Numbered from the stretch's first letter, positions 10,962 to 40,340 are shown. The stretch is 64,000 nt of DNA from Bdellovibrionales bacterium (GCA_965116155.1 OZ220488.1:1304318-1368317); one strand, 5' to 3'. Notes: generated from the sequence alone by a model not told the origin. Program-made: numbers and translations.

Positions 10962-11094
10962 TAGAGTGCGTAAGCATAAAAGTGTTAGTGAGGGCGCCTT
11001 GGCCAGAAAGCGCAGCCTGCTGACACACCTTTAGGTGTGCAAGGCAAGCGGTCTAAGCCAGGGTGCCCTCACGCGCTGGATAAAGCGGCGGCGC
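10962..11094. repeat. 133-bp hairpin element, copy a (TAGAGTGCGTAAGCATAAAAGTGTTAGTGAGGGCGCC...CCCTCACGCGCTGGATAAAGCGGCGGCGC)
   Basis: By manual alignment it differs from copy b (39949-40081) at 2 positions. Internal stems: GTGAGGGCGCC.TGG/CCAGGGTGCCCTCAC and CACACC-TTTA-GGTGTG. Confidence 0.9.
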
Positions 11095-11173
11095 AAGAGC
11101 AGCACCCAGTGCTTTTCAAGAGAGTTTGAACGCTTTGGGCCTATTGATCGCCCCAAGCTGTCGGCGCATTGAT

Positions 11174-11303
11174 AGCTGTCTAGCGCGCAAAAACACTTTG
11201 AATGGGGCCTCGCTTGCCACCTTGGCTGGCGCCCCTTGCAGGGGCTGCCAATGTGTCTACGCCTCTGATCAAAGTGTTTTTGCTGGCGCTTTTATCCTTA
11301 CGG
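11174..11303. repeat. Y-type hairpin element Y1 (AGCTGTCTAGCGCGC - arm - core - arm' - TGGCGCTTTTATCCTTACGG)
   Basis: Arms GCAAAAACACTTTGA / TCAAAGTGTTTTTGC. Core TTGGCTGGCGCCCCTTGCAGGGGCTGCCAA. An inverted near-identical copy lies at 39413-39543 (about 3 differences by eye). Confidence 0.9.
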
Positions 11304-11521
11304 AGCAAGCGTCCTACAGAGAATTTTGCGGCCTATAAGTGCGTAAGCATTTTTGCGCGCTAGACAGCTGGCGTAAGCATTAGAGTGCCAACAAAAAGGC
11401 GTGACCTGAGCTGCCAGATTTGCTTAAAGCTATGGAGCCTTGAGTCCATAGCGCCGTCTCCTTGATGCGCCTTTGGGCGGAAAGCCTTGAGCCTTAGGTT
11501 TGTCTTCGTCATACTATAAAT

Positions 11522-14086
11522 ATGCGTAAGCACTGGGTGGTTATTTGTTGTGTGGTGCTGTCTTGTGCTTTTATTGTGGTAGCTTGCTCCGATGATACTC
11601 CGGACCCTAAAGCGCCCACTCCTGATGCGAGCGCTGCAGACTTAAGGGCCGATGTACTAAAAGACCACGACACCCTGGTGGTGCCGCGTGATGGTGAGAC
11701 GCAGTACGATTTAAAACCTTTTTTTGCCACACTGCATGGGGTGGCAAAAAGCCAAATCCGCACCTCTAACACCAAAAGCCAAGTGGAGTTTGATACAGAT
11801 GACTGCTCGGAGGATGATGAGCTTTTTGAGCTGTCGTACCAAGTGTCAGGCAAAGACAAAGAGATAAATATAGAGTGTGCGGATTCTAGCACGGGCTTGC
11901 CCGATAGCGTGGATGAGGGGTTTTTATTTTTAGCTGGCAACAAAATCTATATGTATACGCTGGATGACAACGATGGCAAAAAGGACAAAGTGCCCATCAG
12001 TGCAGGGGAGTTGTTGTTTTTTTCTGCTGCGTCTAAAAATTTAAATGCTTCTAAAAAATTGCGCCGCCAAGAGATCACCTTTAAGGGCGATGACGATGAG
12101 ACAGAAGCTTCAGAGGTAGGAGCCGTATTAGCTTTTGGTGCTGCAGGTGACGTAAAGGTGGAGGACACCACTTTAGGCACTGCTGGTGCAGCTAAGGGCG
12201 ACGGGTTTTTATTTATAGCCGTGCACTGGGGCACAGATGATGGGGCGGATGATTTTTTTGGCCTAGGTCAGGACGAAGAAGACAATGTGCAAAAAGCCCA
12301 ACCAAGCTCTGGTAGTAACAATGATGATAACGACGATAGCGGTGGCGGCGACAGTGGCGGCAACAGTGGCGACGATGATGACAATGACGGCGACAGTGGT
12401 GACAGTAGCGGCGATGGCGATGGTGCAGGTGGAAGTAACGACGATGACAGTGGCAACAATAATGGTGACAGTGATAGTGACGATGATGATGACGTGGCAG
12501 GGGCGGCTAATTTGGTGGCGCCTTTTGCTGATGCAAAGGTGCAGGCTGGCACAAGTGCGGGGAGCTTAAATTTTAGCTGGGCCTGTAACACTGCAGCTGC
12601 GGATTCTATGTACCACTTAGCTAGTGCTGAGGGCGATTTAGACAGCTGTGCTGAGGTGAGTGTTGAGAGCACGCCTTTAGCAGATCGCACATTAGCGGGT
12701 GTGCATATTTTAAAAAAAACCGCATCAAGCAATTGGTCAAAGGCGGGCTATATTGCTGCAAGAGCTGTTACTAAAACAGGGTCGCGTTTTAAAGTGGTGC
12801 TAACTGACGTTGATACAGGTATTTATCAGTATGCTGTGGCGCCCGCTAAGGGAGAGAGTGATCTAGCGTGGGGGCGTGCTCCCTATCTAACACAGGCACA
12901 GCTGTTGGAAACAGGAGCAACGGGTACCACAAAGGTTAGTAGCTGCACTCACAATAACATGCCTGGGGCAAAAGAGTTTGCCGTGCTTGGCGTACCTGCT
13001 ACAAGCATACAGCTGTGTGTACCTCGCAACAAAAGGTGTGGGTTCAAACCGGTGCCAGGTAAGGCGGCGGGTGCGGATTGTGAGTGCCAGGCGTATGGGG
13101 GTCGTGCTTCGTCTGTGTCTGGTTTTGTGTGGGATGGCAAATGCGCCATGAATCCTATATTTAAGATGCTGCGTTACACCCAGCACAATACCAAAGGGCT
13201 CACGTTAGAGGAGCAAACAAGGTTAGCTAATCCCATAGGCCATGTTAAGTTTACGCCTATGTTTGGGTTTCCACCCTATGCCTCATGGGTCGCAGTGGAT
13301 CGGCGGTGGTTAAGGGCTTTCCGCCAGGAAATTGAAATCTGTGAAAAAACAAACAATGTAGGTGTGTGGCCTTCTGGCAATGTGCAAGGCGGCAGCTGGT
13401 GTAAGGGTCAAGGGGAGCTCAGGTCACCGTGGGTGTTTCCTGCGGAGCGCTTAGCTGTAGCGGCGAATGTGCGCCATTATTTTCGTATGCGCGCGTTGCA
13501 CCTTACTTTGAATTTGGGTGATGCAAATTACTGGCGAAGCCCTTGGGTTTTGATGCAAGCGGATTCGCACACAAGGTTTTGGGGTTTTTCAGACTCTACG
13601 GATGCTACTAAGCGCGATGTATTAGAAGCGCCTAGTGGAGCAAAGGTGTTATATGGTGGCAAAGGGAATGACTGGCTATCTGATACCACTCAAACGGCAA
13701 CGAATATGACTTTTTTGGTGGATTCTTTTTCTTGGGATTTAATTACCAATTTAGAACAAAGGTTCGCGCTTGGAGGAACTAGCCATACAACTCATATTAA
13801 GTGCTATAACGCGAGCCATACGCTTAAAATGGTGATTTTAGAGAGGCCGGATAATTTTTCTACCAGCAATTGGCAGACGCACTTTCAGGAGGCGACCCAT
13901 GCTTCAGACGCTCTGCCGCCAAGCGCATGCGCATTAGCAGATGCGGGCTTAAGGCATGCAAACTGCAAAGGCGTTCGTATTGTTATTAATTCTCAAGGAC
14001 ATTTTCATTTGTCTGGCACTTTTGGCGGCTCCTTAGGTGGCACCGCAGACGCCCCCAAGCGGCTACTGTATTTTAAGTGCAATTAG
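11522..14086 (+). CDS. Large lipoprotein with acidic D/S/G/N low-complexity linker and Cys-rich C-terminal region; function unknown
   Basis: 854 aa with a lipobox (..FIVVA-CSDD). Linker at about aa 255-330 (SGSNNDDNDDSGGGDSGGNSGDDDDNDGDSGDSSGDGDG..). One RTX-like nonapeptide (YGGKGNDWL). The stop TAG lies in the motif variant TTAGAGTGTTAG. Confidence 0.6.
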   Translation: MRKHWVVICCVVLSCAFIVVACSDDTPDPKAPTPDASAADLRADVLKDHDTLVVPRDGETQYDLKPFFATLHGVAKSQIRTSNTKSQVEFDTDDCSEDDELFELSYQVSGKDKEINIECADSSTGLPDSVDEGFLFLAGNKIYMYTLDDNDGKKDKVPISAGELLFFSAASKNLNASKKLRRQEITFKGDDDETEASEVGAVLAFGAAGDVKVEDTTLGTAGAAKGDGFLFIAVHWGTDDGADDFFGLGQDEEDNVQKAQPSSGSNNDDNDDSGGGDSGGNSGDDDDNDGDSGDSSGDGDGAGGSNDDDSGNNNGDSDSDDDDDVAGAANLVAPFADAKVQAGTSAGSLNFSWACNTAAADSMYHLASAEGDLDSCAEVSVESTPLADRTLAGVHILKKTASSNWSKAGYIAARAVTKTGSRFKVVLTDVDTGIYQYAVAPAKGESDLAWGRAPYLTQAQLLETGATGTTKVSSCTHNNMPGAKEFAVLGVPATSIQLCVPRNKRCGFKPVPGKAAGADCECQAYGGRASSVSGFVWDGKCAMNPIFKMLRYTQHNTKGLTLEEQTRLANPIGHVKFTPMFGFPPYASWVAVDRRWLRAFRQEIEICEKTNNVGVWPSGNVQGGSWCKGQGELRSPWVFPAERLAVAANVRHYFRMRALHLTLNLGDANYWRSPWVLMQADSHTRFWGFSDSTDATKRDVLEAPSGAKVLYGGKGNDWLSDTTQTATNMTFLVDSFSWDLITNLEQRFALGGTSHTTHIKCYNASHTLKMVILERPDNFSTSNWQTHFQEATHASDALPPSACALADAGLRHANCKGVRIVINSQGHFHLSGTFGGSLGGTADAPKRLLYFKCN

Positions 14087-14212
14087 AGTGTTAGCCCAAT
14101 ATTCTGGGCAAAGCGCAATCTCCAGTGTAGCCCCTGTTAAGGGGCTATCACGCTGGAGATAAGCGCCCCACAGAATATTGGGCGGGCCTATAAGGCATCT
14201 ATGAGCCTGTAG
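14083..14212. repeat. X-type hairpin element (TTAGAGTGTTAG - CCCAATATTCTGGG ... CCCACAGAATATTGGG - CGGGCCTATAAGGCATCTATGAGCCTGTAG)
   Basis: Read directly. Nested stems CTCCAGTG/CACGCTGGAG and TAGCCCCT-GTTA-AGGGGCTA. Termini match the family consensus. Confidence 0.85.
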
Positions 14213-14431
14213 CCTTGTGCGATTTTTAGGCACAAGGCAACCAGAGTTGCTTAAGGGAGTCTGGACGCTGCGTGCACCCTTTGGACTTTGCACAGTGCAC
14301 CATGCCTTTACACGTGCGTGCATATTGTGCATAGTACTTTGCGGGTTTGGATTAACAAAAATCTACGTGCCACTATTGGCTCTGGAGTTTTTGTTTTTTT
14401 TCGGCATAGCAAAAAGGATATGGAATAAATT

Positions 14432-15427
14432 ATGGCACCAGAAAGAAAAGCAAGTTTAAACACACACTACACCAACACGCATGATCGTTTCTTCCGGAGT
14501 TGTTTTAAGGATAAGGGTTATACGAGGGCGCTGCTAAAATTTTGGCTGCCTCAAAGCGTGCAGGAGGTGTTGGACATTAAAGGCCTGGTTAAGCAGGATG
14601 CCTCTTTGCCTACTATAGGCAAAGAGGCAGACTTGCTAGTACGAGGAACACTTAAAAACACCAGGCCAATTTATATTTTATTAGAGCACAAGCACCAACG
14701 GCAACCCAACAAAACATACAGACAAATGGCTGATTATGGAGTAGCAATAATGCATTTCGAGTTATCTAAGCCTCAAAAGGAGCGGCCTGTTATTGTGAAT
14801 TGCATTTTTTACCATGGCAAAGACCCGTGGCAGCAAGGGTGCGAGTCCGGACTTAATACTGTAATGCACGATATAGGAGCAGAAAGCATAGACTCCATCT
14901 TGCTGCAATTCCATGTGTTTGATCTTGGGCGCCTAGATCGGTCTTTGTGGCCTTCTAAGGGTGCACTGTATTCTATTCTGTATGCGCTTTTAAAGGTGCA
15001 ACAGTTTGGTGATATGGCAGGAAAAGAAAGGCGCGAATTTTTTAGGCAAATTTTCAGCCACCTGGATGACAATGACAGTACAAACCTGATGCAGCATGTG
15101 GTAACTTATGTTTCGAGTGTTTGTGGGATAGACCATGAGGAGGTGATGGGTATGTTAAAGTCAAGTGGTGCGGCAAGAAAGGAATATTTTGAAGCTTGGG
15201 AGCAAAATATGGGTAACCCATGGAAGGAGGCTGGTCGCAAGCAAGGCCAGGCAGAAGGGCGTGCAGAGGGCCTAGAAAAAGGCCTAGAAAAAGGCCTCAA
15301 GCGAGGCCGCGCAGAGGAGCGTGTGGCAGTGGCTGCGAATATGCTCAAAAAAGGCTTGAAGCTCTCTGTAATTTCAGAAGTTACAGGCCTCTCTCAAGAC
15401 GAAATCAAGGGGATTAAAAAGGGCTAG
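14432..15427 (+). CDS. Rpn-family recombination-promoting nuclease / putative transposase (PD-(D/E)XK, YhgA-like)
   Basis: 331 aa. N-terminus HDRFFRSCF.., ..EADLLVRG..YILLEHKHQ.. (the D..E-x-K type core used by this family). Repetitive charged C-terminal tail (EGRAEGLEKGLEKGLKRGRAEER) plus an HTH-like end, typical of Rpn/YhgA-like proteins. Visibly more AT-rich than neighbours. Confidence 0.7.
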   Translation: MAPERKASLNTHYTNTHDRFFRSCFKDKGYTRALLKFWLPQSVQEVLDIKGLVKQDASLPTIGKEADLLVRGTLKNTRPIYILLEHKHQRQPNKTYRQMADYGVAIMHFELSKPQKERPVIVNCIFYHGKDPWQQGCESGLNTVMHDIGAESIDSILLQFHVFDLGRLDRSLWPSKGALYSILYALLKVQQFGDMAGKERREFFRQIFSHLDDNDSTNLMQHVVTYVSSVCGIDHEEVMGMLKSSGAARKEYFEAWEQNMGNPWKEAGRKQGQAEGRAEGLEKGLEKGLKRGRAEERVAVAANMLKKGLKLSVISEVTGLSQDEIKGIKKG

Positions 15428-15563
15428 GGCGCTTTATCCTATTTTAAGTTGCAGACAGTTTTTATGAACAATTTGTATGGGCGCGGCGGTTCCCCCCTGA
15501 ATTAGTACATTTTTGATCTTTACATGGTGAAGGGTTTTAAATGTAAGAGTGTAGGTAGGAGGT

Positions 15564-15830
15564 GTGGGAATGAGGAAGGTGTATAGTGAGGAGCAGATTA
15601 TTAAGGTGCTGGATAGGTTGAGGTCTGGTGTTTCTGCGCAGGACGTGTGTCGAGAGATGGGTGTGAGCCGGCAGAGTTTGTATACGTGGAGGCGCAAGTT
15701 TGGTGGTCTTGGTCTGAGTGAGATGAAGAGGCTGAGGGTTTTGGAGAGAGAGAATGCGAATTTGAAGCGTCTGGTGGCGGATTTGAATTTGGATAATCAG
15801 ATACTAAAAGACAGTTTGCTAAAGTCCTAG
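15564..15830 (+). CDS. IS3-family transposase OrfA (HTH) of a truncated IS
   Basis: 88 aa with an HTH (VSAQDVCREMGVSRQSLYTWRRKF) followed by a leucine-zipper-like segment (LERENANLKRLVADLNL). Classic IS3 OrfA layout. Confidence 0.8.
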   Translation: MGMRKVYSEEQIIKVLDRLRSGVSAQDVCREMGVSRQSLYTWRRKFGGLGLSEMKRLRVLERENANLKRLVADLNLDNQILKDSLLKS

Positions 15831-15979
15831 GGCCTAAGGTGCGTCGGGGTCTTGTGGCTCCATTTATGAAAAAATACCGGGTATGTTTTGCTCGTGTTTG
15901 TCGTGTCTTAGGCCTGTCCCGCAGTATGGTGAGTTTGCGGCGGCTTGCTTGTGGGTTCTTTAAATACCAGAGATTTTAA
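15564..15979 (+). pseudogene. Truncated IS3-family element (OrfA plus about 48 codons of OrfB in the -1 frame; DDE domain missing)
   Basis: Frame -1 relative to OrfA, 15833-15979, reads ..FARVCRVLGLSRSMVSLRR.. (OrfB N-terminal HTH) and then stops. No catalytic domain follows; the composite repeat array starts at about 16001. Confidence 0.7.
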
Positions 15980-16000
15980 AGAATCCGCAGCATGGAGTTT

Positions 16001-16557
16001 ATTGTAGTCGACGCTGAAGTATTATCTAAACGACTGTAATTATTGTTAAATTTGTTGATATTGTGGGTTCTGTTTTTGCAGGGTTTATGGTGTTTTGAGT
16101 GAAGCTGTCTAGCGCGCAATATTACCTTGAAGCCTACGTTTGCCGTCTTGGCTAGCGCCCTGCGGGCTGCCAAGATGGCTGCACTCTAAGGTTCAAGGGT
16201 AATATTACTGGCGCTTTTATGCTTACGCCAAAAACCCTGCAAAACAAGAGGCTCTCTAGTGCACAAAATATTAACCTTGCAAAAGTTCTGCGTGTTAGCC
16301 CCTTGTGCTGAAGTATGTTCTCCGGCTGACTCTGGCTTAAGTTAGAGCGCTAGTAAAATTCTCTGAAGCAAAGCGGCGGCATCCTGACAGCCTCTGCAGG
16401 AGGCGACGATCAGGGTGCCAAGCGTCTTACAGAGAATTTTGCGACCTATAAGGGATCTGCGTGCCTGTAAGATACAGTATTAAAACCCTAATGTGGCACG
16501 AGTACGCGACAGCCGGAAGCCGGAGAACATACTTCAGTCACGACTATTGTAGCAAGC
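16001..16557. repeat. Composite palindromic repeat array, copy 1 (short form)
   Basis: Collinear with 39261-40376 by manual alignment. Terminal inverted repeats TAGTCGACGCTGAAG.. / ..CTTCAGTCACGACTA. Contains Y-type element 16103-16229 and X-type element 16342-16470. Confidence 0.85.
16103..16229. repeat. Y-type hairpin element Y3
   Basis: AGCTGTCTAGCGCGC, arms AATATTACCTTGAA / TTCAAGGGTAATATT, core CTTGGCTAGCGCCCTGCGGGCTGCCAAG, tail TGGCGCTTTTATGCTTACGCC. Confidence 0.85.
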
Positions 16558-16774
16558 ATGACAAGTATGGGTGGAGTTACCCCCCCCCTATCTTAAAATT
16601 AGGCCTAAAATTAGACCCAGGGTTAGGCGAAGGTTGAGGACTAAGGTGGGTACGGCGGCGGAGACTAGGCAAAAAAATAAAAAACGCCATAAAATTTTGC
16701 ACTTTCATACTAAAAACAGTGTGGGTATTTTTGCATAAACATTGGTAGTGTTATGCAATTTTTAAGCCCAAAGT

Positions 16775-16794
16775 TTAGAGCGCTAGCGCTCTAA
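16775..16794. repeat. Perfect 20-bp palindrome TTAGAGCGCTAGCGCTCTAA (two overlapping boundary motifs) on the scoB stop codon
   Basis: Read directly. The minus-strand reading CAA GTT AGA GCG CTA GCG CTC TAA gives the ScoB C-terminus ..QVRALAL*. Confidence 0.95.
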
Positions 16795-17434
16795 CTTGGG
16801 GGTGAATTTTGAGTGGAGCGCCAGTGGCTTGGGCTACTTGCTCAGGGCTAAGGTCTGCCGCATGTTCCATAAGTACCAGCCCCTCGCTGGGGTCGACCTT
16901 TATGTAGCCATAGTCCGAAACAATTATGTCCACACATTTTTTGCCTGTAAGCGGTAAGCGGCAAGCGGGTAAAATTTTAGGCTCACCCTTTTTATTAGTG
17001 TGGGTCATGGCCACAACAACCTTTTTGGCTCCTGCAACCAAATCCATAGCCCCACCCATGCCTTTAACCATTTTGTTAGGAATCATCCAATTAGCAATGT
17101 CTCCCTCGCAAGACACCTCCATGGCACCCAAAACCGTAATATCCACATGCCCCCCACGGATCATAGCAAAAGACTCTGCAGAAGAAAAAAACGACGCCCC
17201 CTTAACAGCTGTGACGGTTTGCTTACCAGCATTTATCAAATCAGGATCCACCTGCTCGGCAGTCGGAAAAGCCCCCATACCCAAAAGCCCGTTTTCGCTT
17301 TGTATTAAAACTTGCTTTTCGTCACCAATATAATTCGCCACCAAAGTGGGCATACCAATGCCCAAATTCACTACAGACCCAGGCTGCACAAAATCCGCTA
17401 TGCGCTCTGCAATACGCTCTCTAGATAAAGGCAC
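16775..17434 (-). CDS. scoB: 3-oxoacid CoA-transferase subunit B
   Basis: 219 aa. Conserved blocks LVNLGIGMPT, SENG, GGAMDL and KILPACRLPLTG are typical of CoA-transferase family I beta subunits. Follows the A subunit. Confidence 0.85.
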   Translation of the reverse strand: MPLSRERIAERIADFVQPGSVVNLGIGMPTLVANYIGDEKQVLIQSENGLLGMGAFPTAEQVDPDLINAGKQTVTAVKGASFFSSAESFAMIRGGHVDITVLGAMEVSCEGDIANWMIPNKMVKGMGGAMDLVAGAKKVVVAMTHTNKKGEPKILPACRLPLTGKKCVDIIVSDYGYIKVDPSEGLVLMEHAADLSPEQVAQATGAPLKIHPQVRALAL

Positions 17435-17454
17435 AGCCCATCACCTCGTAACCA

Positions 17455-18156
17455 CTAACCGCTAAGGGTTTTTTGCTCAATACGTTTTTCATAGTTTTGG
17501 CCTTGAAATATTTTTTGCACATACACCCCAGGTGTATGCACACACTCCGGGTCCAAACTGCCCACGGGCACCACTTCTTCAACCTCAGCTACAGTAACAC
17601 GTGCGCACATGGCCGCTAAAGGATTAAAGTTACGCGCCGTTTTGGCATACACCAAGTTCCCCAGTGCGTCGCCCTTTTGAGCCTTTACTAAAGCGTAGTC
17701 CGCCGTTATGGCTTGCTCTAAAACACACTCGTAGTCTTTGCCGTCTCGCGTAAATACACGGGTCTCCTTAGCCTCTGCCACCTTAGTGCCTGCACCAGTG
17801 GGAGTAAAAAAAGCCCTAATCCCAGCTCCGCCTGCCCGCATGCGTTCTGCCAAAGTGCCCTGAGGGCAAAACTCCACCTCTAGCTCTTTTTGCAAAAATT
17901 GTTTTTCAAACAACGCATTCTCCCCCACATAGCTTGAAACCATTTTGGCAATTTGGCGATTTTGCAACAGCAAACCCAAGCCAAAGTCATCCACCCCCGC
18001 GTTATTCGATACACACACCAGATTACGCACGCCCATTTTGACCAAAGCCGCAATACCGTTCTCGGGTATGCCACACAAGCCAAAGCCTCCAACGGCCAGC
18101 ACGGCTCCATCTTGCACTCCACTTAAGGCCTCTAAGGCATTTTGAACCAACTTCAT
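17455..18156 (-). CDS. scoA: 3-oxoacid CoA-transferase subunit A
   Basis: ORF 17455..18243. The internal ATG at 18156 (MKLVQNALEALSGVQDGAVLAVGGFGLCGIPE..) matches the family N-terminus and removes the overlap with the thiolase gene. Confidence 0.85.
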   Translation of the reverse strand: MKLVQNALEALSGVQDGAVLAVGGFGLCGIPENGIAALVKMGVRNLVCVSNNAGVDDFGLGLLLQNRQIAKMVSSYVGENALFEKQFLQKELEVEFCPQGTLAERMRAGGAGIRAFFTPTGAGTKVAEAKETRVFTRDGKDYECVLEQAITADYALVKAQKGDALGNLVYAKTARNFNPLAAMCARVTVAEVEEVVPVGSLDPECVHTPGVYVQKIFQGQNYEKRIEQKTLSG

Positions 18157-18169
18157 GCTATATAGCCCT

Positions 18170-19357: not shown

Positions 19358-19463
19358 AGACAGGCCGAAACTTTACCCCTCCCTGAGCCACCATTCAAGC
19401 TATATCGCAGAGGGCCATAGAGTCCTTGAGCTGTCTAGCGCTCTAAGTTAATCTGTTGGGGCT

Positions 19464-21195: not shown

Positions 21196-21201
21196 GTAAG
21201 A

Positions 21202-29435: not shown

Positions 29436-29502
29436 CGCGCGTGGTATCAAAGTGCGAGGCTTTGGCGATAATGTGTTCGCTGCGGGCCCTGCAGGCCCTT
29501 CG

Positions 29503-29636
29503 CAGGCTCGTAGATGCCTTATAGGTCGCAAAATTCTCTGTAAGACGCTTGGCACCCTGATGGCCGCCCCGTTGGGGCTATCAGGATGCCGCCGCTCTTC
29601 TTCAGAGAATTTCGCTAGCACTCTAATGCTTACGCA
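29503..29636. repeat. X-type hairpin element (CAGGCTCGTAGATGCCTTATAGGTCGC - AAAATTCTCTG ... CAGAGAATTT - CGCTAGCACTCTAA - TGCTTACGCA)
   Basis: Read directly. Inner stem CACCCTGAT/ATCAGGATG, core GCCGCCCCGTTGGGGC. A near-identical element lies at 51904-52027. Confidence 0.85.
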
Positions 29637-29659
29637 TAGCGCTTTAATGGAGATTAGAC

Positions 29660-33754: not shown

Positions 33755-33859
33755 GCGTTACTGAAGAGTATATATTTTACACGGCAGGTTTTTTAGTGGC
33801 CCCTTTTACCTTATTCTATAACCTTAAGAAGAAGGTTTTAGTTTTTGTAAAAAAGCGGG

Positions 33860-34549
33860 GTGATTTGTATGAGACGTTTGTTTTTGTTCATGGTGGTATT
33901 TTTTTATGCCCTAACTTCTGTAGCTGAGGAAAGCAGCACAAGTGGTGCGCAAGAAAGCGCTCCTAAGAGCCAAAGCCTTGAGCCTCCCCAAATAGATCAT
34001 CCTTTGGTTCAGCACGGTGCAGATCCGGTGTTAAAACTTTTGGAACAAGTCAATCCAATAAAAAAACCCACGCCCCTCCTCCCTAATGCCAAGCCAGATG
34101 TAGCAACAGCTTCAAATCCTATTTTGAATATGCATAAGCAACGCGGCAATACAAAAATCGCCAAAACACTTAATGCTTGCATGGGTTTAAATGTGGGGGT
34201 TTTGTCTGCCGTTACCCTTGCAGTAAATATTTTTAAAATGGTGCATGCACGCAGTTTGCACCCTTTTTTGAACCTTCCAGAAGCTCTTGCATTTGGCTTT
34301 TTTGCTGCAGGAGGGGCGTTTTTTGTAGAGTATGTTATGGGAGTGCCGTCTCTTGAAACATGTGAAAAAATAAGGCAGCAACTAACATCCTGGCTCCATA
34401 TAGAAAACGGGCAAGTAAGCGCCACCTTTGCAGACCCTCATACGGGTGAAACTATAAAAGTGCGTTGTCTGGCTGAGTCTGACCCCTCTAACACCACAAC
34501 CGGCATAAAAGTTTTAGAAAAAACCTGTACCATCATAGACTCCAGATAG
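33860..34549 (+). CDS. Secreted/two-TM membrane protein, unknown function
   Basis: 229 aa with a signal peptide (..LTSVAEE), two Gly/Ala-rich TM helices and a Cys-containing C-terminal domain. The last 9 codons lie in the 30-bp direct repeat DR-L. Confidence 0.5.
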   Translation: MICMRRLFLFMVVFFYALTSVAEESSTSGAQESAPKSQSLEPPQIDHPLVQHGADPVLKLLEQVNPIKKPTPLLPNAKPDVATASNPILNMHKQRGNTKIAKTLNACMGLNVGVLSAVTLAVNIFKMVHARSLHPFLNLPEALAFGFFAAGGAFFVEYVMGVPSLETCEKIRQQLTSWLHIENGQVSATFADPHTGETIKVRCLAESDPSNTTTGIKVLEKTCTIIDSR

Positions 34550-34552
34550 GCC
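34523..34552. repeat. 30-bp direct repeat DR-L (ACCTGTACCATCATAGACTCCAGATAGGCC) flanking the AbiE cassette
   Basis: Matches 36448-36477 at 28 of 30 positions (read directly). Overlaps the stop codon of 33860..34549. Confidence 0.9.
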
Positions 34553-34735
34553 TGTATGCTTACGCCCAATTAAAGTGCTAGTAAAAACTCTTTAAGCAGC
34601 AAGTGCAGTCCCAAGAGCAGCTTCTTAAGCTGCTCTTGGGACTGCACTTACTGGCCAAGTTCGTTTTACTAGCACTCTGATGCTTACGCACTTTATCTCA
34701 GAATATTGGACTGGCGCTCTAATCTTGTGCAAGTA
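34553..34735. repeat. Hairpin repeat array R7 including a perfect 23-bp-stem palindrome (34601-34649)
   Basis: ATGCTTACGC, TTAAAGTGCTAGTAAAAACTCTTTAAGC. Palindrome AAGTGCAGTCCCAAGAGCAGCTT-ctt-AAGCTGCTCTTGGGACTGCACTT. CTAGCACTCTGATGCTTACGCA. CAGAATATTGGACTGGCGCTCTAA. Confidence 0.9.
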
Positions 34736-34818
34736 CTTGAAATTATGTGGTTTTTTCAACAAATTGCATGAATTTTTAATAAAAATATTGACTTTTGCGC
34801 CGCCATCGACGATACTAA

Positions 34819-35439
34819 ATGTACGAAGGTGTAGGTATGAGGGCGCAAGCAGGCCTAGATAAAATGAAGCAATTCTTGACCTCTGGAAAGGTCTACAGAA
34901 GGTCCGATTTTTTAGGCATGACTTCTAGTGTGGATAGAAGCCTAAAGGCCTTAGTTGGGGCGGGTTTTTTAAAAAAGCTGCAACATGGCCTATATTTAGC
35001 GCCTAAGCAGACTATCTTTGGAGAAGCTATGCCTGATGAAGAGGAGCTTTTAAAAAAGTTTTTAAATGATGATCACTTTGTTGTTTATGGACCTAGTAGG
35101 TTCAATGCTTTAGGCCTTGGAACGACACAGCTCTACAATAAAAGAGTGGTATTTAATCGCAAGCGCCATGGGGCAATGAGGCTTGGTGATAGAAGTTATG
35201 ATTTTTATCGTTGGCGAGAGGCTCCTAAGGTTTTATCGAAAGAATTTCTTCTGGTTGAAATGTTTAATAAGTTTAGTGAATTGGCAGAGGATTATGATGC
35301 AGTTGTTAATAACCTTAAAGCCAAGCTCAGTGAATTTAATTCAGCTAAGCTGCATAATGCTCTTAATAGGTTTGGTACGAGATCGGCACAGAAAAAATTA
35401 AGGCCTCTGCTAGAAGAAAATAAAAATGTACCTGCATAA
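34819..35439 (+). CDS. AbiEi-like antitoxin (type IV TA, DUF6088-like winged-helix protein)
   Basis: 206 aa. N-terminal wHTH-like segment (GKVYRRSDFLGMTSSVDRSLKALVGAGFLKKLQHGLYLAP) resembles AbiEi-type antitoxins. Overlaps the downstream AbiEii gene by 14 nt. Start uncertain (ATG 34819, 34837 or 34864). Confidence 0.6.
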   Translation: MYEGVGMRAQAGLDKMKQFLTSGKVYRRSDFLGMTSSVDRSLKALVGAGFLKKLQHGLYLAPKQTIFGEAMPDEEELLKKFLNDDHFVVYGPSRFNALGLGTTQLYNKRVVFNRKRHGAMRLGDRSYDFYRWREAPKVLSKEFLLVEMFNKFSELAEDYDAVVNNLKAKLSEFNSAKLHNALNRFGTRSAQKKLRPLLEENKNVPA

Positions 35440-36394
35440 TCATGAGAACTTTAAGGAATTAGTCGAACTAGTTGCTAAAGAGCAGGAGATTAATGACCCT
35501 TCTTTTGTTGAGAAGGACTACTGGATTATGCATTACCTGTATGGGTTGTCACACTTTGGGCTCGATATGGCTCTTAAGGGAGGAACCTCTATTTCAAAAG
35601 CCTTTAATATCATTCATCGTTTTTCAGAAGATATTGATATAAAGATTATTCCCAATAATGAGAGGGTGGGTTTTTGTGTTTATACGGACAAGAACCACAA
35701 TAAACCTAAGCATCGAGAAAGTAGGAAAAAATACTTTGACTGGCTAGCCAAAGAGTTAAAATGCAGCATTGATGGCATTTTCGATGTTACTAGAGACGGG
35801 GCTTTTGATGATGAAAAATATAGAAATGGTGGCATTCGTTTAATCTATGAAACAATGTTTGCGCCAAACCAAGCGTTGAAAGAGGGCATCCTTTTAGAGG
35901 TGGGTTTTGATAAAACCACTCCCAATATGGAAAAAGATATTTCCTCATGGGCCTATGACAAGGGCGTTAGTATTCTAGCAGACAAAGGCTTAAAAGATAA
36001 TAGGGCAAAAGGTGTGATTTGCTATGATCCACGATATACTTTTGTTGAAAAGCTTCAGGCCATTGTGACTAAGTATGCGCTTTATAAGAAAGGCAAAAAT
36101 CATGGCAAATGGCCGGTTAATTTTTTAAGGCACTACTATGATATTTACTGCCTTTTAGACTGCAAAGAAGTCCAGGGCTTTATTGGGACTGATGATTATG
36201 AAGAGTATAAAAAAGCAAGATTTCGTAAATACGATACAGTGATTAAAAATTGCGAAGGATTTGCGCTATCCGACGAAGAGGAACGAAAAATTTTTGAGGA
36301 TCATTATCTAAAATCCTCTGCACTTTACTACAAAGGTCAAATACCTTTTGAAGACATTTTAAACCGCATACAATCGTATCTTGAAAGGCTTTAG
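35426..36394 (+). CDS. AbiEii/AbiGii-family nucleotidyltransferase toxin (type IV TA)
   Basis: 322 aa. Family signature LKGGTSISKAF..HRFSEDIDI (NTase G[GS] ... DxD). C-terminal helical domain. AT-rich. Confidence 0.75.
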   Translation: MYLHNHENFKELVELVAKEQEINDPSFVEKDYWIMHYLYGLSHFGLDMALKGGTSISKAFNIIHRFSEDIDIKIIPNNERVGFCVYTDKNHNKPKHRESRKKYFDWLAKELKCSIDGIFDVTRDGAFDDEKYRNGGIRLIYETMFAPNQALKEGILLEVGFDKTTPNMEKDISSWAYDKGVSILADKGLKDNRAKGVICYDPRYTFVEKLQAIVTKYALYKKGKNHGKWPVNFLRHYYDIYCLLDCKEVQGFIGTDDYEEYKKARFRKYDTVIKNCEGFALSDEEERKIFEDHYLKSSALYYKGQIPFEDILNRIQSYLERL

Positions 36395-36447
36395 TTTCGG
36401 TTTCTATGACAGTGCAACCTCACTCCCTTAGACGATATGGACCCTTT

Positions 36448-36477
36448 ACCTGCACCATCATAGACTCCAGATAAGCC
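36448..36477. repeat. 30-bp direct repeat DR-R (ACCTGCACCATCATAGACTCCAGATAAGCC)
   Basis: Matches DR-L at 28 of 30 positions. Followed by ..CAGAATATTGGGCTAGCGCTCTAA, which carries the stop of the convergent gene. Confidence 0.9.
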
Positions 36478-36495
36478 GCCCCGCAGAATATTGGG

Positions 36496-37320
36496 CTAGC
36501 GCTCTAATTGTATTGGGATGCCTCTTTTTTTGCAAAATGCCTTGGTATCTTCAAGGTTTTCAGTACGGTACTCAGATTCCGGTTTGCTGCTCTCAAAGGC
36601 AAAATACTTGGGGCAAATAAGGCGGTGGGTGAGCTCTCTTACATGCTCTACACACTGTTCGTGGTTATAAAATTTGTCGTTTTTTTCTCTTAAAGTAAAG
36701 CTTGTAAAGCTAAAACCTCTATGGGCAAAGAACTCTCTAGCATATGCAGGAGATGCGAGATCGGGGCTAGGCACCAAATCTAAGAGCTTGTACCTGAAAA
36801 ACTTTGCTGTGTTGTCCTGCATTAGAAAGAAAAAATTAATAACAGAATTAAGGGATTTTGAGGCACAAACATCACCGCTTAAAAATAAAAATCTCGAAAA
36901 CTCATGGTACGAACCAAGGCTTGTGTGTATCAAAAAACTCATGTGCTGTCGCAAGTTAGAATAAAAGCTCTTTGACTCAGGCGCATTAGGATTTTGCATG
37001 TATTGCCTATAGCTTTCTGATAAATGGGACTCCATAAAATTTACGGCAGCAGCTCCCCCCTCTTTAGAAAACACACTCAGAAAATCCAAAGCCAATGCGT
37101 TTTGAGGCCACTTATTGGCATAGTCTAGCAGCGCCCTAGTAGCACGTTTTTTGTAGATGCCTTGCATGTTTGAAATAGTTTTGAAAACAGTCTTAGCGCG
37201 CGGGTTGCTTCGCCAAGCCTTTTTGGCGGCTTTTTTGTTGAGTATAATATCACTGGCATTAGCACTTGCCACCGTACCCGATCCCAAAACTAATAGCAAA
37301 ATTAAACCTAATGCTCGCAT
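36496..37320 (-). CDS. Secreted protein, unknown function (divergent from metzincin 1)
   Basis: ORF 36496..37419. The ATG at 37320 gives a signal peptide (MRALGLILLLVLGSGTVASA). AT-rich. The stop TAG lies inside CTAGCGCTCTAA (36496-36507). Confidence 0.5.
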   Translation of the reverse strand: MRALGLILLLVLGSGTVASANASDIILNKKAAKKAWRSNPRAKTVFKTISNMQGIYKKRATRALLDYANKWPQNALALDFLSVFSKEGGAAAVNFMESHLSESYRQYMQNPNAPESKSFYSNLRQHMSFLIHTSLGSYHEFSRFLFLSGDVCASKSLNSVINFFFLMQDNTAKFFRYKLLDLVPSPDLASPAYAREFFAHRGFSFTSFTLREKNDKFYNHEQCVEHVRELTHRLICPKYFAFESSKPESEYRTENLEDTKAFCKKRGIPIQLER

Positions 37321-37491
37321 CTTTGATCCCTCCCTATTTTGTTGTCGTTGTGACTTTGTATTTAAAAAAACATCAAACTGCATGCTGCATCGTCCCATCC
37401 TGCTGAGGGCTCCCCGCATTGCGTCAACAAGGCCTAAAAAAAGCTTAAAAAGCTGCTATTTTTTGGTGCTGTCTTTTAAAAGTAAAGTTCC

Positions 37492-38274
37492 ATGCTAAAA
37501 AAATACCGTCTTGTACTTATGGCAGTGGCAGTGCTTTTTGTAGAAGCCGTGCAGGCGAAAGAGCCATACTGCGCATCGCCGGATATCACGCCTACGTTTT
37601 ATGGCGGCACCCATGCAGTGGCCCGATATGTAAAACTCATAGGGGGTATCGTTTTTTATGTGAGTCCTACTTTAGACAAGCGTTTTCATGAAGACATAAA
37701 AGCAGCAGCTAAAACCTGGAATGAGCACCTGCCTCAAGGCGCCCAAATTGCTCTTACTTTTTCACAAGCTAAATGGCGCAGTAAAATAAAAACACAAAGC
37801 GGCAAAGCAATGGCGATCATCCTAGAGCATGCTGGCGGCGTACTGCAACGCTTGCTGCGCACAGACTCACCTAATCTGCTAGAGGATCATAGTGACTTCT
37901 TGCCTGGTGGTACCATAGGCTCTGTAGAGATAGACCCTGCGCCCCCGTTGTTGCGCAAAAATCTTGAAGATATTCTCGCATACGCGATACCTTTTTTATC
38001 GCAGATTTTTATTAACAATGTTGATCATCAGTTTTATGTAATGCAAAAAATAGACGCATTCCAAGACAAGCAGCCCTTTTACGGAACCATACTCCATGAA
38101 ATGGGGCATACCCTAGGCCTAGACCACAATGACCACGACCCTAACAGCGTAATGTCTCGGCAAACATCAAGGCTGGCGCGCTTGAGTGACTCTGACATTA
38201 GGGCGATCCGCTGTGCTTATGGCATGGGCCCTCCTCGACCCTCTTTAAAGTCTTTTGCGGTGCCTGCCCCATAA
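37492..38274 (+). CDS. Secreted metzincin zinc metalloprotease (matrixin/M10-like), paralog 1
   Basis: 260 aa with a signal peptide. HEMGHTLGLDHNDHDPNSVMS (HExxHxxGxxH plus Met-turn). Conserved N-terminal KEPYCASPDITP and C-terminal SDIRAIRCAYG are shared with the two paralogs. Confidence 0.8.
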   Translation: MLKKYRLVLMAVAVLFVEAVQAKEPYCASPDITPTFYGGTHAVARYVKLIGGIVFYVSPTLDKRFHEDIKAAAKTWNEHLPQGAQIALTFSQAKWRSKIKTQSGKAMAIILEHAGGVLQRLLRTDSPNLLEDHSDFLPGGTIGSVEIDPAPPLLRKNLEDILAYAIPFLSQIFINNVDHQFYVMQKIDAFQDKQPFYGTILHEMGHTLGLDHNDHDPNSVMSRQTSRLARLSDSDIRAIRCAYGMGPPRPSLKSFAVPAP

Positions 38275-38374
38275 ACAACTCCTTAAACACATAAACAATA
38301 GGATTTGACATAGGTTTATGTGGTGCTCTACAAGAGTTGGTTAGAAAACACTTTTCTAGCAAGGAGCCAAGATT

Positions 38375-39016
38375 ATGCAGATTGGGCGCAAACTTTTAAC
38401 ACACGGCGTTTTGGTGCTGGTTTTTGGCGTAGCGGGGTTAAGCCCAGCAGCACAGGCTGAGCCTGTTGAGGGTTTGAGCAAGCACGCTGTAGCCTACGCA
38501 TATATGCAGCGCGTGCTTGAGCAATGCGCTGAAGATGCAGCTGTAGACTTGGAGCAAGCGCGCAAGAATGTGGGCGCGCTCACATCTTTAGGAGGCTTTT
38601 ACGGTGCTGCGGTGGCCTTGCTGATCTCTGGGTTTGTGACAGATTTTAAGCCCTTCGTGTGGGGTGTGCCCGTGAGTGCTGCGGTGGGGTTTGTTGGAGG
38701 TGGTTTTGCGGCATATTTTCTCTTTAGGGGGCAAGTTGATAAGCATGCAGCCTCAAGTGTCTTGGGGGAGCAGGCTCAGGCCTACCCAAGGTGCCATGGG
38801 CTTTTTGAAGTGACTTTAGAAAGTGGCAGTGTGTTTTTACAAGAGCGCGGAGGACCTTTTGGTATGCGGTGCCTTTTGGATTTGGATGTTGAGATGGATC
38901 TTTCCAGCTTGCCTGATAATACAGGTTTATTGAAGCAAAATGTTTCTTCTGTAGGCAGCTTAGAAAACACCATACTCCCACTGCCCATCCAGTACGAAAC
39001 CTGCGAGTTAATTTAA
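38375..39016 (+). CDS. 213-aa signal-peptide + two-TM protein with Cys-containing C-terminal domain (metzincin-associated partner, copy 1)
   Basis: Signal peptide (..SPAAQA-EP) and two Gly-rich TM helices. C-terminus ..CHGLFEVTLESGSVFLQE..MRCLLDLD..LPLPIQYETCELI. Paralog of 49952..50593, which has the same length. Confidence 0.6.
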   Translation: MQIGRKLLTHGVLVLVFGVAGLSPAAQAEPVEGLSKHAVAYAYMQRVLEQCAEDAAVDLEQARKNVGALTSLGGFYGAAVALLISGFVTDFKPFVWGVPVSAAVGFVGGGFAAYFLFRGQVDKHAASSVLGEQAQAYPRCHGLFEVTLESGSVFLQERGGPFGMRCLLDLDVEMDLSSLPDNTGLLKQNVSSVGSLENTILPLPIQYETCELI

Positions 39017-39369
39017 AAAGTGCGTAAGCTGTATAGGTCGTAAAAACTCTTTAAGGCTTACGTTTCGCCCCCTTACATGACACCCACTACGGGGGCCAAG
39101 GGGGCTTCACTTACTGCTTAAAGAGTTTTTACTAGCGCTTTAATTGGGCGTAAGCATCAGAGTGCTAGTAAAACAAACTTGGCCAGTAAGTGCAGTCCCA
39201 AGGCGACCATACTCCCGTCAAAGCCCCGTGCATTGAGTAAACTCAAGTTAGAGCGCTGTGGCTTGCTATTCTAGTCGACGCTGAAGCACTGTCTAAACAC
39301 CTGTAATTGTTGTTAATTTTGTTGATATTTGGGGTTCTGTTTTTGCAGGGTTTTGTGTGTTTTAGGTGA

Positions 39370-39810
39370 AGCTGTCTAGTGCACAAAAATGCCTCAGGCA
39401 GGCCCACTTGTCCCGTAAGGATAAAAGCGCCAGCAAAAACACTTTGATCAGAGACGCAGACACATTGGCAGCCCCTGCAAGGGGCGCCAGCCAAGGTGGC
39501 AAGCGAGGCTCCCATTCAAAGTGTTTTTGCGCGCTAGACAGCTATCAACGCGCCGGTAGCTTTGGACGATCTGTAGGTCCAAAGCGTACACACTCTCGTA
39601 GATGGCCCGCGCCCAAGGTGCGTAAGCATAAAAGTGGCCCCTTGAAATCTTGGGCGGATAGCGAAGCCACCTGCGCCCCTTTATGGGGTGCTAAGCAGGT
39701 GGTAAGCGGAGAGCCCCAAAATTTCAAGGGAAAACTAGATAGCTACCGGCGCTATCAGATAGACTGCGTAGGGCTGAAGTCATTTTTGTTGGCACTTTTA
39801 TGCTTACGCC
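39370..39810. repeat. Y-type element carrying two nested insertions (filled form of the 128-bp element at 55053-55180)
   Basis: Same termini and arms as 55053-55180 (AGCTGTCTAGTGCACAAAAATGC.TCAGG ... GCTGAAG.CATTTTTGTTGGCACTTTTATGCTTACGC) but 441 bp long. Confidence 0.8.
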
Positions 39811-39948
39811 AAAAACCTGCAAAATAAGCGGCCCTCTAGTGCACGGAATATTAACCTTGCAGAGGTTTTGCGTGTTAGCCCCTTGTGCTGAAGTATGTTC
39901 TCCGGCTGACTCTGGTGTAAGTTAGAGCGCTAGTAAAATTCTCTGAGG

Positions 39949-40081
39949 TAGAGTGCGTAAGCATAAAAGTGTTAGTGAGGGCGCCCTGGCCAGAGAGCGC
40001 AGCCTGCTGACACACCTTTAGGTGTGCAAGGCAAGCGGTCTAAGCCAGGGTGCCCTCACGCGCTGGATAAAGCGGCGGCGC
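39949..40081. repeat. 133-bp hairpin element, copy b
   Basis: 2 mismatches to 10962-11094. Absent from the corresponding position of composite copy 1 (about 16368). Confidence 0.9.
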
Positions 40082-40215
40082 GCTGATAGCCCCAACGGGG
40101 CGACGATCAGGGTGCCAAGCGTCTTACAGAGAATTTTGCGACCTATAAGGGATCTGCGTGCCTGTAAGATACAGTATTAAAACCCTAATGTGGCATGAAT
40201 ACGCGACAGCCGGAA

Positions 40216-40340
40216 GTGCGTAAGCATAAAAGTGTTAGTGAGGGCGCCCTGGCCAGAGAGCGCAGCCTGCTGACACACCTTTAGGTGTGCAAGGCAAGCG
40301 GCCTAAGCTAGGGCACCCTCACGTGCTGGATAGCTTTTCC
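40216..40340. repeat. 133-bp-family hairpin element, copy c (about 6 differences, different 3' tail)
   Basis: GTGCGTAAGCATAAAAGTGTTAGTGAGGGCGCCCTGG...CTAGGGCACCCTCACGTGCTGGATAG. Interrupts CAGCCGGAA^GCCGGAGAACAT, which is intact in copy 1 at 16511-16530. Confidence 0.85.

Follow-up and report, generated by a model that had tools for sequence, protein, structure and literature searches.

Three near-identical copies of a short element lie in intergenic DNA of a 64-kb window (the whole 64,000-nt stretch that was analysed), and the question they raise is whether they have moved as DNA, have been shuffled by recombination, or are kept for a function in RNA. A sequence-only reading had proposed a 133-bp unit spread by recent transposition or gene conversion through otherwise unrelated contexts, and this interpretation was partly supported. 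The three copies, here A, B and C, are probably a young subfamily of lineage-specific, small, non-coding, hairpin-forming repeats that act as non-autonomous mobile DNA.

10966..11082 (117-nt core; inserted block 10962-11081), + strand: copy A, nested at the junction of the 5’ arm and internal loop of host module H1_11
39953..40069 (117-nt core; inserted block 39949-40068), + strand: copy B, in host module H1_40 at the same site as copy A in H1_11
40216..40335 (inserted block 40217-40340), + strand: copy C, including the complete right end CTGGATAGCT

All three copies were found where the reading had placed them, and over its 133 bp A (10962-11094) and B (39949-40081) are identical at 131 positions, with 2 mismatches. 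The core common to the three is 117 nt long (10966-11082 in A, 39953-40069 in B, and 40216-40332 in C); within it A and B differ at 2 positions (98.3% identity), B and C at 5 (95.7% identity) and A and C at 7, all of them transitions, and the B-C differences all fall within core positions 87-109. Copy C, which lies 25 nt from the truB stop codon and antisense to truB, also has the distinct tail described for it, GATAGCTTTTCC in place of GATAAAGCGGCGGCGC. The mobile unit is shorter than proposed, about 117-124 nt: judged by empty sites, the inserted block measures 120 nt in A and in B and 124 nt in C, and the 12 nt that close the 133 bp (AAGCGGCGGCGC) belong to the host repeat of A and B, where they form a conserved motif. 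Identity between A and B overruns the core by 4 nt and 12 nt into host-repeat motifs, including a shared GC versus AT in other hosts.

Copies A, B and C are one subfamily of a superfamily of about 20 modules of 117-135 nt, all intergenic, which fills most long intergenic regions of the window, with about 10 modules on each strand. The modules constitute a single family with a common anatomy. The left end is a mini-hairpin, GTGC-GTAA-GCAT, with a GUAA (GNRA) loop on the module strand, followed by A.AG[T/C]GC[C/T]AG[T/C] (A.AGYGCYAGY). A long outer stem, whose sequence varies between subfamilies while its pairing is kept, leads to conserved internal-loop motifs, ..GAG.GCGCAGCC on the 5’ side and GGCAAGCG on the 3’ side, with an apical stem-loop between them, and the right end reads GCGCGCTAGAYAGCT (GCGCGCTAGA[C/T]AGCT) or starts with GCGACCTATAAGG. 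Most subfamilies show an AAAA...stem...TTTT pattern; the A/B/C subfamily is without the T-run. Within the window the left-end motif was counted 15 times, with 0.08 occurrences expected. The remaining modules are as follows.

10933..11339, + strand: host H1_11, in which copy A and a block of about 190 nt (11120-11309; found again in inverted orientation at 39407-39597) interrupt the module; an exbD-like gene takes its stop codon (TAG, 10944-10946) from the left-end motif
11174..11305, - strand: superfamily member m11b
14069..14197, + strand: previously unnoticed H1-like member, uninterrupted at the A/B site (TTCTGGG/CAAAGCG)
16103..16230, - strand: superfamily member m16a
16333..16455, + strand: H1_16, uninterrupted paralogue of copy B’s host
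29515..29637, - strand: H1_29, between two + strand genes
34556..34722, - strand: palindromised member with left-end motifs at both ends
39027..39157, - strand: superfamily member m39d
39370..39811, - strand: m39b, with two nested insertions; uninterrupted counterpart at 55053-55181
39411..39543, + strand: m39a, nested in m39b
39618..39744, + strand: I2, the module most closely related to the A/B/C subfamily; sits within the apical loop of 39370-39811
39921..40152, + strand: host H1_40, split by copy B; composed as a mosaic of an outer part with 98% identity to H1_16 and an apical part that matches the H1_29/H1_52 type exactly
48793..48918, - strand: m48, left-end motif overlapping the stop codon of gene 48911-49690
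51916..52037, - strand: H1_52, left-end motif overlapping the stop codon of gene 52024-52680
54859..54982, + strand: superfamily member m54a
54981..55237, - strand: H1_55, apical loop interrupted by 55053-55181; uninterrupted at the A site (CTGGGATAAAGCGG, module strand)
55053..55181, - strand: m55b, nested in the apical loop of H1_55

Aligned with MAFFT, 17 modules were colinear from end to end. A covariance model (R1) was trained on 13 modules with A, B, C and I2 left out, and it recovered the held-out I2 at 58 bits (E 1e-11), C at 47.3 bits (E 4e-9), A at 43 bits (E 4e-8) and B, searched alone, at 43.8 bits, as well as the member at 14069-14197 from outside the training set (65.8 bits, E 2e-13). 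RNAalifold predicted 29 pairs from the 13 modules, with compensatory change in 21. When the 16 window hits were aligned by fitting to the model, which leans the alignment to the model’s structure, 92.7% of cells were paired versus about 40% for slid partners, two-sided change was seen in 26 of 29 pairs, and none of 500 shuffles reached the pairing and covariation values. I2 has the same left end as A, B and C (GTGCGTAAGCATAAAAGTG), its apical loop is TTTA and its right end CTAGATAGCT; the outer stem is where it differs from them. Beside the palindromised member there is a third junction of an H1 left arm with a left end, 34642-34722 being 80% complementary to 10935-11015.

Whether the copies are gains could be assessed from a second segment of the window, colinear with the one that holds B and C.

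15999..16552, + strand: unfilled paralogous segment, colinear with 39266-40373 but lacking B, C and two further nested modules
39266..40373, + strand: filled paralogue, holding B, C and the nested modules 39411-39543 and 39618-39744
16361..16376, + strand: empty site for copy B, CTCTGAAG/CAAAGCGG, junction 16368/16369, from pairwise alignment and motif position
16512..16537, + strand: empty site for copy C, GCCGGAAG/CCGGAGAACATACTTCAG, junction 16519/16520

In an alignment of the two segments, clean gaps correspond exactly to copy B (120 nt) and copy C (124 nt). The unfilled junction GCAAAGCG recurs in the independent uninterrupted member, at 14102, and the unfilled state is therefore the family norm. 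Shared parts of the two host segments are 87-94% identical (about 90%), with 90-91% in the paralogous host DNA around the copies, and the 30 nt to the left of A and of B agree at 78%, with similarity gone farther out. Since the copies are 96-98% alike and their host segments only about 90%, B and C are gains, which bears out the proposal of recent transposition or gene conversion. The flanks, however, are not the unrelated contexts that had been described, as A and B lie at the same position of two repeats from a single host family, and the AAAATTCT arm noted beside them is the 5’ arm of the host repeat’s own hairpin. A larger segmental duplication had been named as the finding that would speak against the proposal; B and C do sit in one, yet its other copy is empty, which argues for mobility and not against it.

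New copies take the form of clean 120-124-nt blocks in intergenic DNA. Nesting was seen in five events with an uninterrupted counterpart in the window (55053-55181 being the empty counterpart of the I2 site), and the landing place in all cases seen was an unpaired part of a resident hairpin repeat, giving rise to nested mosaics: the host internal loop for A and B, host apical loops for I2 and m55b, and for C the base of an 18-nt perfect inverted repeat (16308-16325/16520-16537), with its empty site at the inner edge of the right arm. The left-end motif TTAGAGCGCTAG forms the end of four genes. Comparison of filled and empty junctions for B, C, I2 and m55b revealed no target-site duplication; the CCGGAAG/CCGGAG pair at the C site is already present in the empty site, and the GGATA at the right junction of copy A belongs to the right-end consensus. 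The bases 5’ of the left end vary by event (TAGA, GGAA, CAAG and CTCC), and pairing between the module ends is short only (AGYGC with GCRCT). The only ORF across modules, 39366-39827, had no family match. Of insertion sequences the window contains one remnant only, a fragment of IS3 orfA (15570-15830), the ends of which do not match the modules.

Among the window ORFs scanned there was neither a transposase for the repeat family nor a Y1/HUH domain, and we therefore infer mobilisation in trans, in which copying would be performed by an enzyme encoded elsewhere in the genome. This enzyme may recognise the conserved ends and loops in a folded, probably single-stranded, state, which would explain why structure is kept despite varying stem sequence; our best guess is an enzyme of the HUH/Y1 type, REP/RAYT- or IS200-like. 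Homologous gene conversion among members may afterwards spread and reshuffle the copies.

Such conversion might also account for the whole pattern without transposition, if an old mosaic of the BIME/NIME kind were shuffled only by homologous recombination or conversion between end motifs and host arms and the apparent insertions were conversion tracts running from filled to unfilled sites. The identical position of A and B in two members of one host family speaks for this explanation. So does the fact that their identity reaches into motifs of the host, TAGA at the left and AAGCGGCGGCGC at the right, and takes in two nucleotides found in these two hosts alone. Together with the mosaic structure of host H1_40, this overrun means that gene conversion could have given the A/B pair without a second transposition. 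The confinement of the B-C differences to a 23-nt stretch of the 3’ arm is a patchiness typical of conversion, and short microhomologies (GGATA, AAG and GTGC) occur at several junctions. Copy C, however, has the same core although neither of its flanks (CCGGAAG/CCGGAGAACAT) shows homology to the host family, so its first arrival there needs a non-homologous insertion step. I2 and m55b likewise lie in apical loops of unrelated hosts, and neither the dispersal of about 20 copies in both orientations nor their abutment to stop codons is explained by conversion alone; we consider recombination as the sole process unlikely.

We regard as less likely still that the modules are primarily functional RNAs or RNA/DNA signals (mRNA 3’-end stabilisers, bidirectional terminators, or a small RNA with a GNRA-capped 5’ hairpin), their repetition reflecting selection for function and not selfish spread. 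The strong covariation with conserved internal loops and the GUAA loop would suit such a role, as would the flanking A- and T-runs of most subfamilies, which resemble those of bidirectional terminators; covariation, however, is expected equally of a hairpin recognised as DNA, and a consensus scan of 38900-40500 found 1 terminator-like site versus 2.1 expected. The internal stem that had been described in the copies does exist, with folding z-scores of -4.5 to -7.4 on both strands, and the C-to-T change in A does keep a G-U pair on the + strand, but this does not establish a role in RNA. A and B fold 10-12 kcal/mol more stably on the + than on the - strand, and on the module strand G-T cells exceed A-C cells family-wide by 22 to 11, a weak asymmetry; against this, copy C carries a C-A mismatch that would pair as G-U on the opposite strand. 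Modules stand in both orientations among co-directional genes (29515-29637 on the - strand between + strand genes; 54859 on the + strand beside 55053 on the - strand), copy A is sense to its upstream gene whereas copy C is antisense to truB, the T-run is absent from the very subfamily to which they belong, and mutual interruption of modules would destroy a functional RNA. A search of Rfam 15 gave no matches at the gathering threshold and, at E<=5, only sub-threshold, chance matches to miRNA hairpins (the palindrome at 34576-34674, and 11788-11852).

The repeats are an unreported, lineage-specific family of a known kind (MITE/REPIN/BIME-like) in a deep-branching Bdellovibrio-like bacterium. The public collections searched and Rfam held no match to the family, and an R1 search of 1.57 Mb from distant relatives gave none (best E 0.46). 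REPINs and REP sequences are mobilised by RAYT (Y1/HUH) transposases (Bertels & Rainey 2011, PMC3116915; PMC3337134). Like REPINs, the modules are non-coding intergenic imperfect palindromes of about 100 nt that fold to a long hairpin, occur as many copies in lineage-restricted subfamilies, leave no target duplication while keeping structure, and presumably depend for copying in trans on an enzyme whose gene lies elsewhere. The REPIN design of two inverted REP units, each with a 5’ GTAG-type tetranucleotide, and a spacer was not seen: instead of a doublet of two short REPs there is one long hairpin with asymmetric, distinct left and right ends, and the sole REP-like short palindrome by a GTAG is the type-1 right-end tail, where the GTAG is 3’ and not 5’ of the palindrome. 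Module stems are also far more diverse in sequence than those within a REPIN population. A REPIN system has a single-copy RAYT gene flanked by the repeats, and the window showed none.

Bacterial MITEs such as Correia, ERIC/IRU, RUP, BOX and Nezha have been reviewed (Delihas 2008, PMC2229807; Croucher 2011, PMC3049150). The modules resemble them in being small, multi-copy, stem-loop forming and present or absent at otherwise matching sites, and in inserting beside or into gene 3’ ends and contributing stop codons; their size (117-135 nt), lack of coding capacity and dispersed copies (3 in the subfamily and about 20 in the superfamily, counted in one 64-kb window) are those of MITEs. They differ in having no target-site duplication, such as the TA of Correia, only weak terminal inverted repeats (AGYGC/GCRCT), and no parent insertion sequence with matching ends visible in the window. 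Without target-site duplication or strong terminal inverted repeats, the modules are not textbook DDE-type MITEs. Palindrome-associated elements derived from IS200/IS605 insert strand-specifically, without duplication, 3’ of a set tetra- or pentanucleotide. Such an identity was rejected given the varying bases 5’ of the left end and the occurrence of modules on both strands, although the lack of duplication does fit.

BIMEs of enterobacteria and NIMEs of Neisseria are mosaics of palindromic units with short conserved flanking motifs. Module clusters likewise fill whole intergenic regions in both orientations, short conserved motifs bound more variable units, and recombination between units is evident; in contrast to BIMEs and NIMEs, to which their sequences are unrelated, the modules are nested and not merely juxtaposed, and the unit is a single hairpin of 120-135 nt with conserved internal loops. 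Integron attC sites are recombination substrates of 57-141 nt whose primary sequence is variable, while the folded single-strand hairpin, with its conserved boxes and unpaired bases, is kept. The modules are similar in that primary sequence varies and a folded hairpin with conserved unpaired motifs is retained. An attC identity was rejected: there is no GTTRRRY/RYYYAAC core pair (GTTAGAG fails GTTRRRY at the last position), no integrase domain in the window and no cassette array, and the modules are in mixed orientations in housekeeping-gene surroundings.

It is a long shot, though conceivable, that the superfamily is an element under selection for its structure, recognised in the form of a folded single strand, and that it nests within itself by entering, without target duplication, the unpaired loops of resident hairpins. 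The enzyme needed for this would be of a class so far not connected with such cargo, and the product of an Rpn/YhgA-like PD-(D/E)XK (‘Transposase_31’) gene at 14432-15427 is one candidate. The full module at 14069-14197 lies 235 nt upstream of this gene, and a left-end fragment directly follows its stop codon.

The three near-identical copies that the sequence-only reading had reported are real, and all were found where it had placed them (A, 10962-11094; B, 39949-40081; C, 40216-40340). A and B match at 131 of 133 positions, and a 117-nt core, GTGCGTAAGCAT...GCTGGATA, is common to all three. The cores differ by transitions only (two between A and B, five between B and C, seven between A and C), and all five B-C differences are confined to core positions 87-109. 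The segment at 15999-16552 is a paralogue of 39266-40373. From 16203 on they run colinear at ~90% identity, broken only by two clean gaps in the 16-kb paralogue, which correspond exactly to copy B (39949-40068, 120 nt) and copy C (40217-40340, 124 nt).

Cores of the three copies and the empty sites of B and C
10966-11082, core of copy A
39953-40069, core of copy B
40216-40332, core of copy C
16368/16369, empty-site junction for B, CTCTGAAG followed by CAAAGCGG
16519/16520, empty-site junction for C, GCCGGAAG followed by CCGGAG

The unfilled junction GCAAAGCG was found again in an independent member at 14102. Because the trailing AAGCGGCGGCGC of the 133-bp unit originally proposed is already present in the empty site, it is host sequence rather than insert, and the true unit is 117-124 nt. 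Identity among the copies is 95.7-98.3%, compared to ~90% for the host duplication and 78% over 30 nt for the A/B left flank; the copies are therefore younger than either, which means that the 40-kb segment gained B and C and the 16-kb segment did not lose them. The sequences flanking A and B, which had been considered unrelated, are instead related host repeats. The interpretation of mobility was nonetheless essentially right, given presence/absence at paralogous sites and copies younger than the host duplication.

Two possible marks of insertion or excision were rejected. A TA target duplication at A and B was discarded because the right-hand GATA is part of the right-end consensus CT[A/G]GA[T/C]AGCT, which also occurs in C, in I2 (the module at 39618-39744, closest relative of the A/B/C subfamily) and in other modules. 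An excision footprint at the empty site for C (CCGGAAG CCGGAG) was discarded because the second copy in it pairs with 16308-16325, as one arm of a perfect 18-nt inverted repeat. This inverted repeat, CTGAAGTATGTTCTCCGG / CCGGAGAACATACTTCAG, brackets a module of the H1 host type together with ~65 additional nt; its arms match perfectly at 16308-16325 / 16520-16537 and with one mismatch at 39888-39905 / 40341-40358, and it looks like another, larger hairpin-type element hosting the H1 module.

A, B and C form a single young subfamily within a superfamily of structured repeats that are densely spread and nest in one another. By reading, nearly all long intergenic regions of the window are made of modules with a single anatomy.

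Anatomy of a module
Left end, mini-hairpin (G)TGC-GTAA-GCA(T), then A.AG[T/C]GC[C/T]AG[T/C]
Long outer stem, usually AAAA.../...TTTT
Conserved internal-loop motifs, ..GAG.GCGCAGCC and GGCAAGCG
Apical stem-loop
Right end, in two forms, GCGCGCTAGA[C/T]AGCT or GCGACCTATAAGGGATCTATGAGCCTGTAG

The A/B/C subfamily is distinguished mainly by its outer stem, GAGGGCGCCCTGGCC / GGCCAGGGTGCCCTC, which is without A/T runs, and also by a shortened apical domain, CACACC-TTTA-GGTGTG. A long hairpin is predicted for its core on both strands (z = -4.5 to -7.4), the + strand fold being more stable by 10-12 kcal/mol in A and B, though not in C. The C-to-T change in A keeps its + strand pairing as G-U, as had been noted, and copy C carries a C-A mismatch that would pair as G-U on the opposite strand.

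Several results tie the modules into one family. The left-end 18-mer occurs 15 times in the window at ≤2 mismatches, compared to 0.08 expected, and a MAFFT alignment of 17 modules is colinear. RNAalifold on 13 modules gave 29 pairs, 21 of them with compensatory changes. The same 13 modules, leaving out A, B, C and I2, were used to train the covariance model R1, which was run over the entire window with filters off. It recovered the held-out C (47.3 bits, E 4e-9), A (43 bits, E 4e-8) and I2 (58 bits, E 1e-11), scored B at 43.8 bits when B was searched alone, and turned up a further member, earlier overlooked, at 14069-14197 (65.8 bits). When 16 hits were aligned to the model, 92.7% of cells were paired, compared to ~40% with slid partners, and both sides changed in 26 of 29 pairs, values reached by no shuffle; since the fit is to the R1 structure, such counts are biased towards it. 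The independent MAFFT/RNAalifold prediction points the same way. A GC-rich hairpin is enclosed by two copies of GCGTGAGAGTTGGCTTTTATGCTACGC (48634-48662 and 48753-48781), an inverted left-end motif that has diverged, and these copies are probably further degraded members missed by R1.

There are ~20 members, full or interrupted, in the window, all intergenic and about ten per strand, giving a density of ~1 module per 3 kb; conclusions on copy number rest on these 64 kb. The repeats provide the stop codon of at least four genes, the left-end motif TTAGAG[C/T]G[C/T]TAG ending each of four (10944-10946, 14084-14086, 48911-48913 and 52024-52026), and thus either border on the 3' ends of genes or change them slightly. 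The modules are also nested in one another, and for five such events the window contains an uninterrupted counterpart.

Insertion sites of nested modules
A and B, where the outer 5' arm meets the internal loop in H1-type hosts; this site is uninterrupted at 14102, 16361 and 55201, and at the equal alignment position in H1 members H1_29 (29515-29637) and H1_52 (51916-52037)
C, inner base of the 18-nt perfect inverted repeat
I2 (39618-39744), apical loop of the module at 39370-39811; empty counterpart at 55053-55181
m55b (55053-55181), apical loop of the H1 member H1_55 (54981-55237)

The H1 left-arm site is also abutted by another subfamily at 34642-34722. No target-site duplication was found at any junction examined, and the bases 5' of the left end vary from event to event. 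All resolvable insertions lie in parts of the host hairpin predicted to be unpaired, although the events are few and stem insertions would be harder to recognise. A ~190-nt block made of one module and a 52-nt extra hairpin, present at 11120-11309 and 39407-39597 in opposite orientations with 89-95% identity, is a second recently copied composite.

The best-supported explanation is that A/B/C and their superfamily are a non-autonomous mobile hairpin repeat. Paralogous sites are filled or empty, the copies are relatively young and belong to a family of conserved structure, and the modules nest and lie in mixed orientation. The modules may be copied in trans by an enzyme that reads folded modules by their conserved ends and loops, and recognition of this kind would explain how the stems vary freely while their pairing is kept. 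Neither target duplications nor strong terminal inverted repeats are present, which speaks against a DDE-type parent and for a mechanism that makes no duplication, HUH/Y1-like or otherwise. Gene conversion is clearly also at work among the repeats: the A-B identity tract extends into host motifs, the B-C differences are clustered, and H1_40 (39921-40152), the host of B, is a mosaic of two host subtypes, with outer arms 98% identical to the 16-kb paralogue (16333-16455) and an apical stem-loop, CTGATAGCCCCAACGGGGCG, identical to the 29.5-kb (29515-29637) and 52-kb members. Conversion could have produced the A/B pair, but it fails for C, I2 and m55b, first arrivals at sites that lack flanking homology.

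That the modules are primarily functional RNAs is disfavoured. They lie in mixed orientation between co-directional genes and interrupt one another, the A/B/C subfamily has no T-run, and Rfam returned no match at the gathering threshold or at an E-value threshold. The strand asymmetry of wobble pairs is also weak (22 G-T versus 11 A-C cells). A promoter and terminator scan of 38900-40500 gave nothing beyond shuffled expectation.

An intact Rpn/YhgA-like PD-(D/E)XK gene (14432-15427; Pfam Transposase_31, NCBIfam Rpn family) has a full module (14069-14197) 235 nt upstream, and a fragment like an inverted left end (GGCGCTTTATCC, 15424-15448) begins directly past its stop codon. This gene is a possible candidate partner of the repeats. 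Immediately upstream of the repeat cluster at 16 kb there is an IS3-family orfA (HTH_Tnp_1, 15570-15830) that no intact orfB follows, probably the decayed remnant of an insertion sequence.

Bacteria are well known to carry small palindromic mobile repeats. In its working the superfamily is closest to REPINs/REPs (PMC3116915, PMC3337134), its mosaics resemble BIMEs and NIMEs, and it has general habits in common with bacterial MITEs (PMC2229807, PMC3049150). The defining features looked for were missing: target duplication for DDE-type MITEs, the REP doublet for REPINs, a fixed 5' flank for IS200/IS605-type elements, and core boxes and an integrase for attC sites. Integron attC sites, IS608-like TTAC targeting and bridge-RNA-like programmable loops were rejected on anatomy because here the loops are conserved and the stems vary, the 5' flank is not fixed, and modules point in both directions.

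The apical 24-mer was not found in genome_contigs or metagenome_contigs, nor a degenerate left-end pattern in metagenome_contigs or viral_contigs. Searching plasmids and phages with 39920-40170 by blastn gave no match, as did the left-end motif and R1 in 83 loci (1.57 Mb) of the nearest available relatives, and nothing relevant was found in the literature on the motif or on Bdellovibrio repeats. The repeat family is new but of an already known kind, and the superfamily is not a new kind of biology. Its main value lies in strong conservation of structure and an unusually clean natural before/after record, with filled and unfilled paralogous sites in one window, which defines the mobile unit of a hairpin repeat family not previously described, in a lineage that is poorly sampled and of which hardly any relatives have been sequenced. 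Together with the free stem sequence, the density and the supply of stop codons, the conserved structure offers a usable system for asking in which form, DNA hairpin or RNA, such repeats are recognised, and what makes them nest in each other.

The window is bacterial and carries a gliding-type TPR/FHA/TolQ/ExbD cluster, AddAB, IcmF, ETF, thiolase, ScoAB, TruB and alternative complex III; tRNA and tmRNA genes were not found in it. The nearest IcmF proteins are from Bdellovibrionales and Pseudobdellovibrionaceae genomes (~60% identity), and the nearest TruB, with an identical database entry set aside, is 46% identical. The nearest available relatives (L081, L083) keep the row nusA-infB-rbfA-truB-rpsO-pnp with short spacers. 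In the window truB (40365-41279) is followed by a 1.35-kb repeat cluster and a convergent unrelated gene, so the conserved row is broken at the repeats.

Repeat clusters also border each set of paralogous matrixin-like metalloprotease genes (37492-39016, 48911-50593 and 50842-51807), two of which are paired, in opposite orientations and with 72-80% DNA identity, with a 213-aa protein of no known family. A DUF6088 / AbiEii (type IV toxin-antitoxin) pair at 34819-36394, with a GC content of 0.40-0.42 compared to ~0.50, is bordered by a palindromised repeat (34556-34722) and is probably a small acquired island. Degenerate periodic repeats of 9-18 nt at 12318-12479 (GAT/GGC/AGT codons, giving an Asp/Gly/Ser-rich tract) lie within an 854-aa ORF (11522-14086) without a family match, and a 16-nt tandem repeat, AAAGCCCGGTACCGTT, is present in ~4 copies at 1097-1159, where ORFs 140-1114 and 1158-2918 meet. 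Coding-strand GC skew is very strong, at +0.19 to +0.34 in most + strand gene stretches and negative in most - strand stretches, which is unusually high for a genome of ~50% GC.
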